Shown in pieces: positions 24,766 through 30,177 of a stretch of 32,000 bases of DNA. A program made the translations under genes and the position numbers. Each line of letters starts with the position of its first letter. Within the stretch, counting starts at the first letter, position 1. Where the stretch lies: contig NC_010628.1 of assembly GCF_000020025.1 (NCBI RefSeq), positions 3,390,001 through 3,422,000 of the forward strand, written 5' to 3'. Below the pieces are notes generated by a model. It had not been told where the DNA came from. It made no database searches and saw only the letters and a program-made list of their open reading frames with translations. The DNA is from Nostoc punctiforme PCC 73102. GTDB lineage: Bacteria > Cyanobacteriota > Cyanobacteriia > Cyanobacteriales > Nostocaceae.

Positions 24766-26178
24766 TCAGCGACCGATTTCGACATCTTCGAGGATGCCGA
24801 GTGCGTCGGGGACAAGAACGGTTGCGGAGTAGTAGGCGGTGACGAGGTAGGAGATGATAGCCTTTTCGTTGATGCCCATGAATCGGACGGACAAACTAGG
24901 TTGGTATTCGTCCGGGATACCTGTTTGGTGTAGGCCAATCACGCCCTGATCTTTTTCACCAGTGCGGAGTATAAGGATAGAACTGGTCTGGTTTTTGGTA
25001 ATCGGGATCTTGTTACAGGGCAGAATCGGTACATTGCGCCATGTGATTATTTTGCTCCCATCCATGTCGATGGTGTCTGGATAAATGCCTTGACGGTTGC
25101 ACTGGCGACCGAAGGCTGCAATAGTGCGGGGATGAGCTAGGAAGAACCTCGACTTCCGCCGACGAGTGACTAATTCATCCAAGTCATCAGGATTGGGGGG
25201 ACCGCTGCGGGTGTAGATGCGCTGTTTGAGATCGGCGTTGTGTAACAATCCAAATTCGCGGTTGTTGATCAACTCGTATTCTTGACGTTCCCGCAATGCC
25301 TCAATTGTCAGCCGCAATTGTTCTTCCGTCTGGTTGTACGGTTGATTGTACAGATCCGCAACACGAGTATTCACTCGCAACATAGTCTGAGCAATGCTTA
25401 ACTGATATTCGCGGGGTGAAAGTTCGTAGTCAACAAATGTTCCCGGTAATGTCGTCTCAGTGCTATGACTGGTTGACAATGCGATCGCAGCTTCTCCATA
25501 CTTGTTTTGTGGAAGTTCTGCACGAATCCGAAACTGCTCAAGTTGAGCCTGTAAGGCCTGCGACTGGTTGAGCAGTTCCCGAAATGCCTGTTGTGGTAGT
25601 GCTAATACGGTGCATCGGGTCACAGCTTGGACTGTGAACTTCCAATTGCTTTCTGACTCCACCAACACGCGATCGCCAAAATAATCACCGTCAGCTAGCA
25701 TATCCAATAGAGGCTGCTCGTCATACTTGCCAATAGCAATCTTGTTTACCTTGCCATGTGCGATCAAGAAAAGCTGATTGGCTGGCTGACCTGACTGGAC
25801 TATGATATCACCAGGTGCGAACTCCTGCTGAACAAACCGACTTGCCAACGCCCTTAGCACCTCGGTATCGTCAAATCCTCGCAGCAAGGGCAACTCACCA
25901 AGTTCTTGGGGAATCACCTGCACCTCGGCTCCGGTGTTGGAGAAACTCAACCGCCCATCACCCACGGTATAGGTCAACCGACGGTTCAGCCGATAAGTGC
26001 CACCCTTCGTCTGCACCCACGGCAACATCTTCAACAACCACCGTGAGGTAATTTCCTGCGTCTGCGGTGCAGATTTGGTGGTCGTGGACAAATTACGCGC
26101 AGCATCTTTACTCAAACTCAGTTGTTGAGGTTGTCCACTCTCAACATTTAAATTTGATTCAATAAAATCCGTCATCAC
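24766..26178 (-). CDS. Family 2B encapsulin-like shell protein with inserted cNMP-binding-like domain, paralog 2 (conventionally annotated cnb / cyclic nucleotide-binding protein)
   Basis: 470 aa with no HTH. The N-terminal part reads [32 protein letters not shown] cNMP-like beta-barrel spans about aa 97-205. The C-terminal ~260 aa ([46 protein letters not shown]...[14 protein letters not shown]...[51 protein letters not shown]) resembles Family 2 encapsulin (HK97 fold) sequences as I recall them. It is the last gene of the geoA operon. Confidence 0.75.
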
Positions 26179-26269
26179 CTCATCCTCTAGTTACTAATAA
26201 AAGTGCGTCAACTGCCACATATACTTCAATTGCATACAGCCTTTTGCAGGTAAATAGACCACGCAGTAG

Positions 26270-26290
26270 GGGCACAGCATTGCTGTGCCC
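26270..26290. repeat. Intercistronic hairpin GGGCACAGC-ATT-GCTGTGCCC between the two shell paralogs
   Basis: 9-bp perfect stem with a 3-nt loop, read directly. It is a sequence type common as a dispersed repeat in Nostoc genomes. Confidence 0.6.
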
Positions 26291-26409
26291 TTACCAATAT
26301 TTGTGGTTCAATTAACTGAAAATTCCTGTAATGCTTGTAAGCTTTGATTTATCAGCATTAGAGCCAAATTAGTTCCATGTGCCAGTTGCGTAAGTCCTTT
26401 CACGAATAT

Positions 26410-27819
26410 TTAGCGCCCGATCTCAACATCTTCGAGGATGCCAAGTGCGTCAGGAGTGAGGACGGCTGCGGAGTAGTAGGCGGTAACGAGGTAAGAGATG
26501 ATCGCCTTTTCGCTGATGCCCATGAATCGAACAGACAAGCTGGGTTGGTATTCATCGGGGATACCAGTTTGATGTAAGCCGATCACCCCTTGTTTTTCTA
26601 CACCAGTGCGGAGCAAAAGGATAGAACTGGTGCGGTTATTGGTGATGGGGATCTTATTGGAAGGAAAGATAGGTACGCCGCGCCAAGATGTGACCTGAAC
26701 GCCGTTTACATCTACGCTTTGTGGATAGAGACCAAGGCGGTTGGCCTCACGACCGAAAGCAGCGATCGTGCGGGGGTGAGCCAGGAAGAATCCCGGCTCC
26801 TTCCATACCGTCGCTAACAGCTCGTCCAAGTCGTCGGGGGTAGGTGCACCGCTACTGCTATAGATCCGCTGCTTGAGGTCGGCGTTGTGCAGCAACCCGA
26901 ATTCGCGATTGTTGAGCAACTCGTGTTCTTGACGTTCCCGCAATGCCTCGATAGTCAGCCGCAGTTGTTCTTCTGTCTGGTTGTATGGTTCATTGTACAG
27001 ATCGGCTACCCGCGTACTTACTCGCAACACCGTTTGAGCAATGCTCAACTCATATTCTCTGGGTTTGAGTTCGTAATCAGCGAAGGTTCCCGGCAACTCA
27101 GCCTCTTGGGGATGATTAGCCGCCAGCTCAATAGCGGCTTCACCTTGGGGAGTCTGTGGCTGGCTCAGGCGAACGCGGAACTGTTCAACATGAGTTCGCA
27201 AGGCCTCGGACTGATCGATCGCCCTCTCAAACACCTCTTGGGGTAGCGACAAAACTATGGTTCTGGTAATTGCCTTGAGGGTATACTGCCAGGTGTCGTC
27301 GGACTGCACCACAGTTTCATCGCCGAAATGGTCGCCGTCGGCGAGCACATCGAACACGATCTGCTCGCCATACTTGCCAACACCAATTTTGTTTACCTTG
27401 CCACGAGCAATCAGAATGACGCGATCGGCAGGCTGGCCAAGTTCGACGATTACATCATCTGGAGCGTACTCCTGCTGAACAAACTGGTTTGCTAACCCGG
27501 TCAATACGTCAAGGTTGTTAAACCCTCGCAGCAAGGGCAACTCAGTAAGTTCCAGGGGAATCACCTGCACCGCAGCTCCAGTGTTGGTGAAAGTCACCCG
27601 TCCATCACCCACGGAATAACTCAACCGACGGTTGACCCGATAAGCGCCACCTTTTGTTTGCACCCACGGCAATAACTTCAATAACCAGCGCGATGTAATT
27701 TCCTGGGTTTGCGGTGCAGATTTGGCCGTTGTCGCCAAATTACGCGCCGCTGCTGTACTCAAGGTTAAATGGGGCTGCTGATCTTCTACATTCAAATTGG
27801 GGTCGTTAGAATACGTCAC
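26410..27819 (-). CDS. Family 2B encapsulin-like shell protein with inserted cNMP-binding-like domain, paralog 1
   Basis: 469 aa, collinear with the 24766-26178 product and with near-identical C-terminal ~55 aa. It has a GTG start at 27819 preceded by GGAGGA (27827-27832). It lies 96 bp downstream of geoA. Confidence 0.75.
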
Positions 27820-27915
27820 AACTTAATCCTCCACTTTTTAGTTACTAAAAAAATCGATCTCACGCGATCGCATACTGACCTTGAAAACTTTAGTCACCGA
27901 CAAAAAAACCTGACT

Positions 27916-30177
27916 TCATTGACCGAGTAATGACTTGAGACTCCCCTGACCGATCAACGATCCAATACGCCTAGCTGAAGTACCCAGCCCTCTGGGACCG
28001 CTAAGTAGCCGCCCTGCTAACGAATTACGCAATTCAAATTCCTTATAGCGGTCTACCGTTATATGCCACTTGAGGACGCCGCACATCCACTGCTCTAGTT
28101 TCTTGACGTATCCGAGCAGTTTCTCGCGGGTACTTGCATCCAGGTCGAAATCATCGAAAAGAACTGGCAGTTCGGTGGCGACGATGAGTTGAAACTGGAG
28201 CGCCCTAGAGGTCATCAGGTTGTTGACAACTTCGACGGCCTGCGGCAAATCGCAGTTGAGGAAATTCTGAACGACCAGCACACAGTTATGGATTTCGCCC
28301 TCGAATTCGATTTCTTTCTGATAGGAAAAGATATCGTTGGTTAAACAGGCGAAGTCGGCGGCCGAATTATCGAGCGATCGCATCGTTCGGGTGCGGTAAA
28401 TCTCCTGCGGGATCTCGCTCCCCTGAGCTAGTCGCGACAGGCTCATGGTCAGATCCGAGCCAAAGGTCTTACGGCGCATCTCAACATAATCTATCGGGTC
28501 AGGAATTCGATTTTGGATCTGGTTGGCGAGTTCCCACACCCAACTGTCAGTCATATCCTGGATTGCGCGGCGGAACTGAGTCCGTGCGTTGGCAGACATG
28601 GGACCAGCTGTGCGAGACCAAATATCTGCCAAGCCCGCTTCCACTGGATTGGTCGGAACCTCGCTGGGGGTGGAGTCATCCAGAGGCATGAACGCCGACA
28701 GTCGAGCGTTGAATACTTTCGCACCAGCCATGTTGCGGTTATTCCCGTAGAGCGCCGGGAAGTAATCGTCGGCATAGGTTCCCCAAACAAGCCAGCACGC
28801 TGTCAGATTCAGTTCAAGACCAGACCCATTCGGATGGATCAACGCACCGCAGAGAGCTACGTCGGCAACATCAAACTTGTGGTCATCCCAGATGACGGCA
28901 TCAGGAATCCCAGGTAGTGATTCCAGCATCCCCATCTGGCGCGCCCATTCCTTAGAATGCTTCCGTGCGGCATTGAGATGAGGATTCAAACTTGTAGTGA
29001 ACGGCATGTAAAACTTCGGCAGGGTCACTGGTCCCACAGGCTGGTATGGAACGTGAGTGAAGCTTTTAATTCTTCCTAAACCCAAGGCCGCATATAACGA
29101 TTCAATCCGCGCAGCCGATGTGCCTAGCCCTGTGGGTCCTCCCAGAACCGTAGATGTTGGAGAATTGTCTCCTCCCTTGTTCATGTAACGGCTTGATCGC
29201 ATGTGCCACTCGTGACCGCCCGACTGCCAGTCCTGAAGTCCTTTGATATAAAGGAGAACGTTCACACGAGCCACTGGGTCTAGTCCATACTCCTCAAAGA
29301 GGGGGGGCAACTCGGTGACGGCAGTGTTATCAAACTGGTATAACCGCGAGGTCAGCAGTTCGTTGGTGAGGTTAGCTGCCTCCTGGGTACTCACATTTAA
29401 GAAGCGCTCCAAGACCAACACACAGTTGGCATTTTCGCCTTCATCTTCCACTTCTCTCTGGTAGGAGAAGAGGTCGTTGCGTAAATGCACTCCATCGGCA
29501 AACGTGTCTTTTAGCACACGCATTGGCCGAGTCGAGGCAATGTCAGCCGGAATCTCTATAAACACGGCGTGTTCGACGAGATCCGCTGACCACGGAGCGC
29601 CACCAACCTTGCGGCGCATTTCGATGTATTCGATGGGGTTAGCGACTCGATCCTGGTTGATATTGGCGAGTTCCCACAGAGACTCTTCCAGGAGGTTCTT
29701 GGTACTCTCGAAGAATCGAAGTCGCCAGTCCACAGATTTAGTAAATGCGGTGCGAGACCACAGGTCGGCCAAGCCGCACTCCACGGGGTTGGTAGGTACT
29801 GGGGGGGTTTCAGTGGGGTAAATTGGCATGAACATTGGTAATCTGCCGAGATACTCCTTCGCCCCAGCCATGTCTTGGGTACGCTTATAGATTTCAAGGA
29901 AGTGATCGTCGAAGAAGAACACCCAAACATACCAGTCGGTCACTAGGTCAAGCTCCGTTCCTGGTGCATCTGGATGGGTATACGAGCAAAGCAAGGCGTA
30001 GTCGTGAGCATCGAATGTGCGCTCGTCCCAGATAACCGAGCTTTCCGCTTCCTCTTTTGAGCCAAGTATCCCCATCTGGTAAGCCCAGGCTTTGGAATGC
30101 GATCGCGCCGCTTCCAGGTTTGGATTCAGCCGCGCGGGCCAAGGCATGTAAAATTCTGGCAGTTCAAAGGGTTGCAT
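27916..30177 (-). CDS. geoA: Bifunctional germacradienol/geosmin synthase (two class I terpene cyclase domains)
   Basis: The N-domain has DDHFLE (aa 90-95; nt 29893-29910) and NDLFSYQRE (aa 234-242; nt 29452-29478). The C-domain has DDYFP (aa 470-474) and NDIFSYQKE (aa 614-622). At 753 aa, this is the hallmark geosmin synthase architecture. The SD GAGGAGG lies upstream of the ATG at 30177. Confidence 0.93.

Follow-up and report, generated by a model that had tools for sequence, protein, structure and literature searches.

Very probably, the product of two adjacent shell genes encloses geosmin synthase, the enzyme behind an earthy smell, in Nostoc punctiforme PCC 73102. We estimate at about 85% the probability that this enzyme, GeoA, is enclosed in a Family 2B encapsulin shell of two components, built from both gene products, shell A and shell B. 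Every sequence-level test that we ran supported the combination of a Family 2B shell with a terpene-cyclase cargo. The preliminary description had proposed a shell that packages GeoA rather than two transcription factors, and this proposal is supported by equivalog HMMs, two cargo-loading peptides, pocket and pore residues and Enc1/Enc2 motifs. Its novelty was overrated. The RefSeq entries for all three exact N. punctiforme proteins already carry encapsulin shell or cargo names, Andreas & Giessen 2021 (PMC8346489) catalogued 64 cyanobacterial operons of this geosmin synthase and shell kind, loading motif included, and packaging of GeoA in the two-component Family 2B shell MxEnc1/MxEnc2 was shown experimentally for M. 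xanthus (Fazal, Dutcher, Andreas & Giessen, bioRxiv 10.64898/2026.07.21.739788, July 2026 preprint). The geosmin synthase-encapsulin reading of the Nostoc locus is thus not new; what is missing is direct proof in a cyanobacterium. In agreement with the earlier statement that no cyanobacterial geosmin-synthase compartment had been demonstrated experimentally, the literature searched yielded no experimental proof for the Nostoc locus or for any cyanobacterial geosmin system.

The predicted geoA operon and its spacers

The three genes lie on the minus strand of the window (the whole 32,000-nucleotide stretch of DNA analysed), as do all features of GeoA and the shell proteins located below. According to the ORF listing, geoA (27916-30177; 753 aa, ATG start) is followed by the genes for shell A (26410-27819; 469 aa, GTG start) and shell B, the latter given as 24766-26178 (470 aa, GTG start). 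Most likely, however, translation of shell B starts at the ATG at 26175 and not at the GTG, giving a gene that spans 24766-26175. The corresponding 469-aa protein is identical to RefSeq WP_012409285.1, and no entry identical to the 470-aa form was present in the protein collection searched. With the ATG start the spacer between the shell genes measures 234 bp (231 bp with GTG), so that the gene arrangement described earlier stands, including the 96 bp gap, and only the second gap, then given as 231 bp, changes. The GC3 of the operon, 0.54-0.59 as against 0.30-0.43 for the adjoining genes, marks it as a compositional island. The three genes look to have been acquired horizontally as one unit, and their nearest non-cyanobacterial relatives look to be those of Myxococcota.

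In the 96 bp spacer between geoA and shell A (27820-27915, minus strand), the GTG start is preceded by a GGAGG ribosome-binding site; the spacer also has an HIP1-like GCGATCGC and, at 27855-27870, a weak stem together with a T7 run. The spacer between the shell genes (26176-26409, minus strand) folds with an MFE of -67.1 kcal/mol (z = -2.95) and contains a 13-bp perfect hairpin at 26266-26294, which is not a classic terminator because no T-run follows it. These stem-loop-bearing spacers of 96 and 231-234 bp contrast with the junctions of 3-4 bp found in most Myxococcota loci. The 1.4 kb region upstream of geoA (30178-31571, minus strand) has no ORF longer than 69 aa and is presumed to be the promoter region; it contains a tandem repeat (51 bp x2.4, 30742-30863), and promoter-like matches in it were no commoner than in shuffled sequence.

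Family 2B character of the shell proteins

The identification of the two ~470-aa products as Family 2 encapsulin shell proteins was borne out by a profile-HMM search, in which shell A and shell B matched the Family 2B equivalog NCBIfam NF041163 (encap_f2b) with 746.8 and 771.4 bits, respectively (cutoff 400). Shell A is identical to WP_012409286.1, a "family 2B encapsulin nanocompartment shell protein". Both proteins align end to end with the shells solved by cryo-EM, 9BJE, 9BIX and 9BHU (E 2e-196 to 3e-184). The best PDB match of shell A was 9BJE (Sl-Enc1; E 2e-196, 656 bits), whereas shell B matched 9BHU, from S. griseus, and 9BIX, which is Sl-Enc2, best (both with E about 1e-194 and ~651 bits). 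The SrpI-like HK97-fold part (Pfam PF19307) corresponds to aa 218-469 of shell A (26413-27168; E 7e-132, model 4-254 of 254) and to 24769-25521 in shell B (E 1.5e-136). The cNMP-binding-fold insertion (CBD; Pfam PF00027) is located at aa 116-203 of shell A (27211-27474; E 9e-15) and at 25564-25827 in shell B (E 2.5e-18), and the Pfam search detected no HTH domain in either protein, just as the preliminary description had it. The paralogues are 70% identical overall; identity rises to 79% in the C-terminal HK97 part and drops to 57% in the cNMP-fold domain.

Models from two AlphaFold2 runs were poor, with a mean pLDDT of 42.7 and 52.8, and a Foldseek search with such a model ranked encapsulin shells first, albeit with TM-scores of only 0.24-0.41. 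As both models are poor, assignment of the HK97 fold rests on homology and not on an independent model. The CBD of shell B was modelled better, with a pLDDT of 70-85; its superposition on solved CNB domains gave about 1.9 A and a TM-score of about 0.8. On these homologies, shells A and B are predicted HK97-fold capsid-like protomers in which the cNMP-fold domain is inserted in the E-loop region and would be displayed externally.

Residues with known roles in related shells are conserved. Shell A retains R26, W177, E255, L265, L286, F432 and Y443, and shell B R27, W178, E256, L266, L287, F432 and Y443. These include the counterparts of the hydrophobic pocket residues L264, L285, F430 and Y441 of S. 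griseus Sg Enc, as well as those of R24 and E253 of MxEnc1, which are involved in pore closure. In both proteins the Arg of the phosphate-binding cassette is replaced by Trp (Trp177 and Trp178), and the CBDs are therefore predicted not to bind cAMP.

Predicted cargo and shell composition

The geoA product, the predicted cargo, is a class I terpene cyclase of two domains, a germacradienol/geosmin synthase. It is identical to ACC81293.1/WP_012409287.1, has two Terpene_syn_C_2 matches (Pfam) and scores 1245.5 bits against NCBIfam NF041168 (f2_encap_cargo3; cutoff 1200). All geosmin synthase motifs quoted in the preliminary description were recovered by regex on the translation. The metal-binding motif of the N-domain, DDHFLE (aa 90-95, 29893-29910), is paired with NDLFSYQRE (aa 234-242, 29452-29478), and that of the C-domain, DDYFPA (aa 470-475, 28753-28770), with NDIFSYQKE (aa 614-622, 28312-28338). 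GeoA also carries two copies of the cargo-loading motif described in PMC8346489: the linker between the domains contains CLP1, GPTGLGTS(AARI), at aa 347-354 (29116-29139), and CLP2, GPRGLGTS(ARRI), lies close to the C-terminus at aa 727-734 (27976-27999). They are the sole G[PA]xGLG[TS] matches in a six-frame translation of the whole window, which makes GeoA its only protein with a loading peptide.

Shell A contains the Enc1-type motif TVWK (aa 337-340, 26800-26811), and its Enc2-type counterpart RRRK is present in shell B (aa 338-341, 25153-25164), which indicates a two-component shell. All cyanobacterial loci whose two shell genes share the strand of geoA have the order geoA, TVWK shell, RRRK shell, as do most Myxococcota loci. 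Among the loci examined, the TVWK/RRRK pairing itself is maintained in those of cyanobacteria and myxobacteria and in several of actinobacteria.

Known systems, proposed working and alternative readings

The closest characterized system is that of M. xanthus, with which Nostoc GeoA shares 68.4% identity and the shells 62-66%. Every column of CLP1 aligns with its M. xanthus counterpart, and CLP2, although different in sequence, also aligns exactly; the peptides, whose motif was mutagenised in the M. xanthus study, occupy the same positions, and the R24 and E253 counterparts and the cassette Trp are shared. The Nostoc gene order is that of the Myxococcota relatives of M. xanthus. Further differences are the cyanobacterial host and the long, hairpin-bearing spacers (96 and 231 bp, against 3-4 bp at related Myxococcota junctions). 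S. lydicus Sl-Enc1/Sl-Enc2 (PDB 9BJE, 9BIX; PMC12407261) shares the first diagnostic motif, TVWK in Enc1 and RRRK in Enc2, and the PDB matching is reciprocal, shell A pairing with Sl-Enc1 and shell B with Sl-Enc2, as given above. The second diagnostic motif is not recognisably kept (SVDVNGVQV and TIDMDGSKI in Nostoc, AVDFHGHSLP and GAELHGTDVR in S. lydicus). S. griseus EshA/Sg Enc (PDB 9BHU; PMC11550324), whose cargo is 2-methylisoborneol synthase, has the same Family 2B architecture, including the external cNMP-fold domain with Trp for the cassette Arg, identical three-fold pocket residues and a GPxGLGT-type loading motif on the cargo. It differs in having one shell gene and, as cargo, a single-domain cyclase that carries its loading domain at the N-terminus.

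In another cyanobacterium, Pseudanabaena foetida, a pair of "cnb" paralogues codes for proteins with cNMP and SrpI-like domains. These products, CnbA and CnbB, have already been reinterpreted as Family 2B shells, and structures of about 15-20 nm with immunogold labelling were reported, without demonstrated shell structure or cargo loading (PMC12159092). That cluster differs from the Nostoc operon in serving the 2-MIB pathway (mtf, mtc) and in that shell genes flank the enzyme genes. The Family 2A shell SrpI of Synechococcus elongatus (PDB 6X8M; PMC8049743) matches the C-terminal ~240 aa of the Nostoc shells (E about 1e-90), and its cargo likewise docks at three-fold axes. Unlike the Nostoc shells, it lacks the cNMP-fold insertion, contains a cysteine desulfurase and has nearly closed two-fold pores.

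Judging from the orthologues of M. xanthus, S. lydicus and S. griseus, a total of 60 protomers of both types, probably mixed stochastically, would co-assemble into an icosahedral T=1 shell about 27-29 nm in size. The loading peptides of GeoA would dock at the interior three-fold axes in the conserved hydrophobic pocket (L265/266, L286/287, F432, Y443), tethering the enzyme inside, and the large two-fold pores beneath the cNMP-fold domains would let farnesyl diphosphate in and geosmin out. Encapsulation would shield the GeoA linker from cleavage and hold back the germacradienol intermediate, giving a higher geosmin yield. The cNMP-fold domains may bind some non-cAMP ligand and, together with the conserved N-arm Arg/E-loop Glu pair, could act as an open/closed switch of the two-fold pores.

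The traditional annotation, by which geoA is regulated by the "cnb" products as cyclic-nucleotide-responsive transcription factors of the Crp/Fnr type, survives in the naming of older records and papers and draws on the cNMP_binding domain of both proteins and on weak CRP, NtcA and FixK matches confined to that domain. These CRP-family matches score 12-36 bits against cutoffs of 180-300, and the true Crp regulator of the window (16489-17172) combines cNMP_binding with HTH_Crp_2, whereas the shells lack an HTH, have Trp for the cassette Arg and consist over their C-terminal ~250 aa of an SrpI-like HK97 capsid domain. Their orthologues build shells and do not bind cAMP. Domain content thus effectively refutes this annotation, to which we give almost no chance of being correct.

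That shells form but are not mixed, either as separate homomeric shells or with one structural paralogue and a separately expressed minor or regulatory subunit, is unlikely in view of the mixed shells directly shown for S. lydicus and M. xanthus. One protomer suffices for shells in both systems, the TVWK type in M. xanthus and, in reverse, the RRRK type in S. lydicus (PMC12407261), but the second protomer does not assemble on its own in either; moreover, in Nostoc the HK97 parts are 79% identical, interface and pocket residues are conserved, and the TVWK/RRRK pairing is kept across loci. Separate shells were left possible by Andreas & Giessen 2021, the long spacer with its strong hairpin permits independent or unequal expression of the shell genes, and independent expression has been reported for Pseudanabaena cnbA and cnbB (PMC12159092). 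Even less probable than unmixed shells is a genuine shell with GeoA mostly free in the cytosol or with a main cargo encoded elsewhere in the genome. Many actinobacterial geoA genes are distant from any shell gene, three-fold site occupancy was only about 25% in M. xanthus preparations (bioRxiv 10.64898/2026.07.21.739788), and unencapsulated N. punctiforme GeoA is reportedly active in vitro, so that the shell is not an absolute requirement for catalysis. Enclosure of GeoA in the shell is favoured by the conserved cargo-shell gene order, by the confinement of the loading peptide, in two copies, to GeoA within the window, and by co-purification of the M. xanthus orthologue with its shell.

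The geoA operon and its products

The three genes under study follow one another head to tail, all of them on the minus strand: geoA (27916-30177, 753 aa, ATG start), shell A (26410-27819, 469 aa, GTG start) and shell B (24766-26178, 470 aa, GTG start as called). The ORF listing of the window places the two shell genes directly downstream of geoA and agrees with the preliminary description, which gave three same-strand genes with gaps of 96 and 231 bp between them. The start of shell B is most likely the ATG at 26175, because the resulting 469-aa product, and not the 470-aa version, exists as an exact database entry. 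All three products are exact matches to proteins of Nostoc punctiforme PCC 73102 (ATCC 29133), which has an 8.23-Mb chromosome. In RefSeq, the geoA product (ACC81293.1, WP_012409287.1) is named family 2 encapsulin nanocompartment cargo protein terpene cyclase, and the products of shell A (ACC81292.1, WP_012409286.1) and shell B (ACC81291.1, WP_012409285.1) are both named family 2B encapsulin nanocompartment shell protein. The UniRef label of these two proteins is still "Cyclic nucleotide-binding protein", and homologue records from other strains are still labelled "Crp/Fnr family transcriptional regulator". A promoter and terminator scan of positions 24000-31700 returned 10 promoter-like and 7 terminator-like sites, as compared to 8.8 and 7.6 in shuffled sequences. 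These counts are not above chance.

Shell A and shell B are 70% identical overall, 57% in the cNMP-fold domain and 79% in the C-terminal part. Both contain an SrpI-like HK97 domain (Pfam PF19307; E values of 7e-132 for shell A and 1.5e-136 for shell B) and a cNMP-binding fold (PF00027) at aa 116-203 of shell A and aa 118-205 of shell B. The internal cNMP-fold insertion is the feature that distinguishes Family 2B from Family 2A encapsulins, and the Family 2A model NF041162 matches both shells in two stretches located on either side of it. The NCBIfam equivalog model for Family 2B shell proteins, NF041163, was matched with 746.8 bits by shell A and 771.4 bits by shell B, the cutoff being 400 bits. 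In addition, alignments of the two proteins with the cryo-EM shells of Streptomyces lydicus Enc1 (9BJE) and Enc2 (9BIX) and of S. griseus (9BHU) run virtually from end to end, with E values between 2e-196 and 3e-184, and the C-terminal ~240 residues of both proteins align with the Family 2A shells 6X8M (cyanobacterial SrpI) and 8T6R (E about 1e-90). Together, the equivalog model, the HK97 domain and the full-length structure alignments bear out the Family 2B shell identity that had been proposed for both paralogues.

The same genes, under the name "cnb", have been read as Crp/Fnr-type regulators. A Pfam search detected no helix-turn-helix in shell A or shell B, as the preliminary description had noted, and models for CRP, NtcA and FixK gave scores of 12-36 bits against cutoffs of 180-300. 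The window provides an internal contrast, since the genuine Crp-type regulator encoded at 16489-17172 on the plus strand displays both cNMP_binding and HTH_Crp_2 domains. The absence of a helix-turn-helix, the Family 2B equivalog match and the homology to shell structures, set against regulator scores below cutoff, therefore do not support the regulator reading, and the doubt raised earlier about transcription factors at this locus was justified.

The preliminary description had also proposed a profile-HMM search and an AlphaFold/Foldseek comparison. The former gave the clear result presented here, but the latter was poor. The AlphaFold2 model of shell B had a mean pLDDT of 42.7 when based on 23 close homologues and of 52.8 when based on 112 sequences of 62-97% identity, and confidence was confined to the cNMP-fold domain and a portion of the A-domain. 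The model of the cNMP-fold domain could be fitted onto CNB domains of known structure at about 1.9 Å. In a Foldseek search of the PDB the model ranked 9BHU, 9BIX, 9BJE, 6X8M and 8T6R at the top, but with TM scores of 0.24-0.41 and rmsd values of 9-22 Å. The model is too poor to serve as independent evidence for the fold and was set aside.

GeoA contains two Terpene_syn_C_2 domains (Pfam). The N-domain carries the metal motif DDHFLE (aa 90-95) and the NSE motif NDLFSYQRE (aa 234-242), and the C-domain carries the DDxxD-like motif DDYFPA (aa 470-475) and a second NSE motif, NDIFSYQKE (aa 614-622), which confirms the earlier assignment as a two-domain class I terpene cyclase of the geosmin synthase type. 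GeoA also matched the NCBIfam model for Family 2 cargo, NF041168, with 1245.5 bits (cutoff 1200 bits). Two loading peptides are present: CLP1 in the interdomain linker (aa 347-357, core GPTGLGTS at aa 347-354) and CLP2 near the C-terminus (aa 727-737, core GPRGLGTS at aa 727-734). In a global alignment (68.4% identity) both share alignment columns with the peptides of M. xanthus GeoA, and no loading-peptide motif was found in other reading frames across the 32-kb window. This duplicated motif was named in 2021 as the likely targeting signal of cargo of the geosmin synthase type (PMC8346489). In M. xanthus the two peptides load GeoA redundantly: loading drops by about 30% when either is deleted, and to ~20% of wild type when one is mutated and the other deleted (bioRxiv 10.64898/2026.07.21.739788).

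Expected assembly and working of the Nostoc shell

Residues to which a function has been assigned in other Family 2B shells were located in the Nostoc proteins. In the phosphate-binding cassette, Trp takes the place of the Arg found in canonical cAMP domains; the residue is W177 of shell A and W178 of shell B, and both align with W176 of Sg Enc, the S. griseus shell. According to the literature practically all Family 2B shells have this Trp, and tests of the shells of S. griseus and M. xanthus detected no cAMP binding. The hydrophobic residues L264, L285, F430 and Y441, which in Sg Enc lie at the interior three-fold axis under the density of the cargo, are kept as L265/L266, L286/L287, F432 and Y443 (shell A/shell B), and the N-arm Arg/E-loop Glu pair has counterparts in R26/E255 of shell A and R27/E256 of shell B.

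The two paralogues also bear the signature of a two-component shell. Diagnostic motif 1, by which the Enc1 and Enc2 protomers of two-component Family 2B systems are told apart (PMC12407261), reads TVWK at aa 337-340 of shell A (26800-26811) and RRRK at aa 338-341 of shell B (25153-25164). The best PDB matches fit this typing, being the S. lydicus protomer Sl-Enc1 for shell A and Sl-Enc2 and Sg Enc for shell B. The loop of diagnostic motif 2, in the luminal A-domain, reads SVDVNGVQV in shell A and TIDMDGSKI in shell B, and the S. lydicus sequences at this position are unlike either of them. We considered whether motif 1 predicts which Nostoc protomer assembles by itself. In M. xanthus, where MxEnc1 is of the TVWK type and MxEnc2 of the RRRK type according to the sequences in the preprint supplement, the TVWK protomer assembles alone and the RRRK protomer does not, whereas in S. 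lydicus it is the RRRK protomer, Sl-Enc2, that assembles alone and not Sl-Enc1. Because the two characterised systems behave oppositely, motif 1 is not predictive of self-assembly; a text search of the M. xanthus preprint (bioRxiv 10.64898/2026.07.21.739788) found no mention of it.

Mixed-shell co-assembly has been demonstrated in S. lydicus and M. xanthus, and physical encapsulation of GeoA in M. xanthus only. The M. xanthus shells are 62-66% identical, and its GeoA 68% identical, to the Nostoc proteins. According to the preprint that describes this system (bioRxiv 10.64898/2026.07.21.739788), 60 subunits drawn from both protomers assemble together into a T=1 shell about 27 nm in size, with the cNMP-fold domains on the outside around two-fold pores of about 20 x 60 Å and cargo peptide density at the interior three-fold axes; a fully closed state of the two-fold pore occurs in mixed shells only. 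The same study reports that encapsulated GeoA has unchanged kinetics, that the final geosmin titre is higher and that the enzyme is protected from interdomain cleavage. Because every sequence determinant checked is conserved, we expect, with a probability of roughly 85%, that the Nostoc system would work as the M. xanthus system does. By analogy with the orthologues, shell A and shell B would form an icosahedral shell (T=1, 60-mer) measuring about 27-29 nm.

A more far-reaching view is that the shell would be a reaction chamber and not a passive container: it would drive the conversion of germacradienol to geosmin, and metabolite-gated pores would couple geosmin release to the physiological state of the cell. 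The Trp-type cNMP-fold domains, together with a latch formed by the N-arm Arg and the E-loop Glu, would gate the two-fold pores, with a cyanobacterial metabolite as the signal to open or close. A need for the shell in the second step of GeoA would explain why N. punctiforme GeoA produced alone in E. coli gave germacradienol and no detectable geosmin, as found in one study known through secondary sources; according to likewise secondary sources, the enzyme made geosmin in vitro in another study. We regard such a gated chamber as improbable. A possible link between the germacradienol-only result in E. coli and the titre gain upon encapsulation in M. xanthus is of residual interest, as is a demonstration of the compartment in a cyanobacterium. 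If gating did operate, geosmin release would be tied to physiological state.

The geoA-shell A-shell B locus is already known: it is annotated, and the class of operons to which it belongs has been both described and validated by experiment. A publication of 2021 covered Family 2B encapsulins and the terpene cyclases that they carry as cargo, two-shell operons, the loading motif and 64 cyanobacterial terpene-cyclase operons (PMC8346489). The first Family 2B structure, with 2-MIB synthase as cargo, followed in 2024 (PMC11550324); in 2025 a two-component shell was published (PMC12407261) and the cyanobacterial 2-MIB proteins CnbA and CnbB were reread as Family 2B shells (PMC12159092). The preprint of July 2026 on GeoA encapsulation in M. 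xanthus also notes that in most Cyanobacteriota geoA and shell genes are encoded together (bioRxiv 10.64898/2026.07.21.739788). In agreement with the preliminary description, we found in the literature searched no paper demonstrating a geosmin compartment in a cyanobacterium; the same literature yielded none tying N. punctiforme to this encapsulin. For the encapsulin field the locus, as a catalogued member of its class, brings nothing conceptually new. Its remaining value is that of a handy cyanobacterial test case, N. punctiforme being genetically tractable and its GeoA having already been assayed. In drinking water, cyanobacterial geosmin is a major source of taste and odour problems. In much of the literature on cyanobacteria the geoA-adjacent "cnb" genes are still taken for Crp/Fnr regulators, a name also used in a cyanobacterial paper of 2020. 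If these genes encode a shell, the study of geosmin production, retention and release changes, geoA-based monitoring would be read differently, and rebuilding of the pathway in other hosts would change too.

Comparative loci and origin of the operon

For comparison, 80 GeoA loci were retrieved. Wherever a cyanobacterial locus has its two shell genes on the same strand as geoA, they follow it in the order TVWK or IVWK shell, RRRK shell; the sole departure is locus L014, whose second shell was not matched by the motif pattern and is hence unclassified. Most Myxococcota loci (Archangium, Corallococcus, Polyangium) have the order geoA, TVWK shell, RRRK shell, and one or both shell genes lie upstream of geoA in Sorangium (L024) and Nannocystis (L052). 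Some Actinobacteria carry the TVWK gene upstream of geoA, and actinobacterial loci with a single shell have the RRR type only. Two loci hold additional GeoA-like genes. At 4667-15976 of L047 (Microcoleus sp. F10-A1), two tandem GeoA-like genes are followed by an IS4 transposase fragment and then, on the opposite strand, by a complete 2-MIB cluster (shell, MIB synthase, GPP methyltransferase, shell); the geoA of this locus is without shell genes of its own alongside. Two adjoining GeoA-like ORFs are present at 5702-10253 of L013.

Among the 80 loci the nearest non-cyanobacterial GeoA proteins are those of Myxococcota (Vitiosangium, 74%; Archangium, 71-72%), those of Actinobacteria reaching at most about 66%. 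The operon differs in composition from its surroundings: GC3 is 0.59 for geoA, 0.58 for shell A and 0.54 for shell B, against 0.30-0.43 in the adjoining genes, and the GC content is 0.51, against 0.41 in the remaining window. Most other cyanobacterial loci checked show a similar contrast. A synteny search found metK, prk and petH beside the operon in 0 of 80 related loci. The GC3 island, together with flanking genes that accompany the operon nowhere else among the loci, suggests that the three genes arrived jointly by horizontal transfer and were moved later. The only flanking gene that recurs among the 80 loci is an upstream 142-aa ORF, of which the sole copy (88%) is found in L005. The contig of this locus, CAZZZY010000189.1, is labelled as an uncultured Acetobacteraceae MAG, and its operon is 89% identical to that of Nostoc; it is probably a mis-binned cyanobacterial contig.

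In a neighbour-joining tree the shell proteins group by phylum before they group by type, a pattern that would fit if the shell gene had duplicated independently in cyanobacteria. The sharing of the TVWK and RRRK motifs and the reciprocal best PDB matches, however, make an old duplication followed by homogenisation the somewhat more likely course. In the same tree the two paralogues of each of the operons L005, L006, L007 and L014 cluster together, and in these loci the TVWK copy finds its better-scoring match in Nostoc shell B, with shell A second; both motifs are retained in L005-L007. This suggests gene conversion between the paralogues of these four loci, with selection keeping the motif.

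Spacers, antisense matches and neighbouring features

The spacer between shell A and shell B (26176-26409) holds a 13-bp perfect hairpin, GTAAGGGCACAGCA/TGCTGTGCCCCTAC, at 26266-26294. It is not followed by a T-run, and the fold of the spacer has a z score of -2.95. Among the comparison loci this hairpin recurs in L004 only; the shell-shell spacers of other cyanobacteria, of about 104-426 bp, carry strong hairpins unrelated to it. Unlike the long Nostoc spacers (96 and 231 bp), most Myxococcota loci have shell-shell junctions of 3-4 bp. The hairpin may control in what proportion the two protomers are made.

The Rfam family RF02735 (Sernc350) matched above its gathering score at 27275-27780 (120.5 bits) and 25628-26135 (73.1 bits), both on the plus strand and thus antisense to the 5' halves of the two shell genes. 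RF02735 is a Saccharopolyspora antisense sRNA family that was defined opposite SACE_3976, an orthologous gene for a cNMP protein. We considered an antisense sRNA and rejected it: the alignment contains many non-canonical pairs, and the family itself was defined opposite that orthologous gene. The match most likely reflects conserved coding sequence, and RF02735 in effect marks Family 2B shell genes at the nucleotide level.

Upstream of geoA lies a stretch of 1.4 kb in which no ORF exceeds 69 aa. It includes a 51-bp tandem repeat at 30742-30863 (2.4 copies, 97% matches), and GC-rich repeat-like stretches occur around 31190-31340. Elements of the sequence ACGAGACGCT flank the operon on both sides, at about 30420 and about 24590.

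Elsewhere in the window, two adjoining genes with BMC domains, resembling those of carboxysome shells, are located at 12020-12331 and 12417-12764 on the plus strand; they represent a second, unrelated kind of protein-compartment shell about 12 kb from the operon. An ORF for a ParA/MinD-like ATPase (9443-10075, plus strand) is overlapped by two 211-aa ORFs, at 9936-10571 on the minus strand and 10063-10698 on the plus strand, for which Pfam gave no match, and a cytochrome P450 gene is present close by, at 7838-9304.
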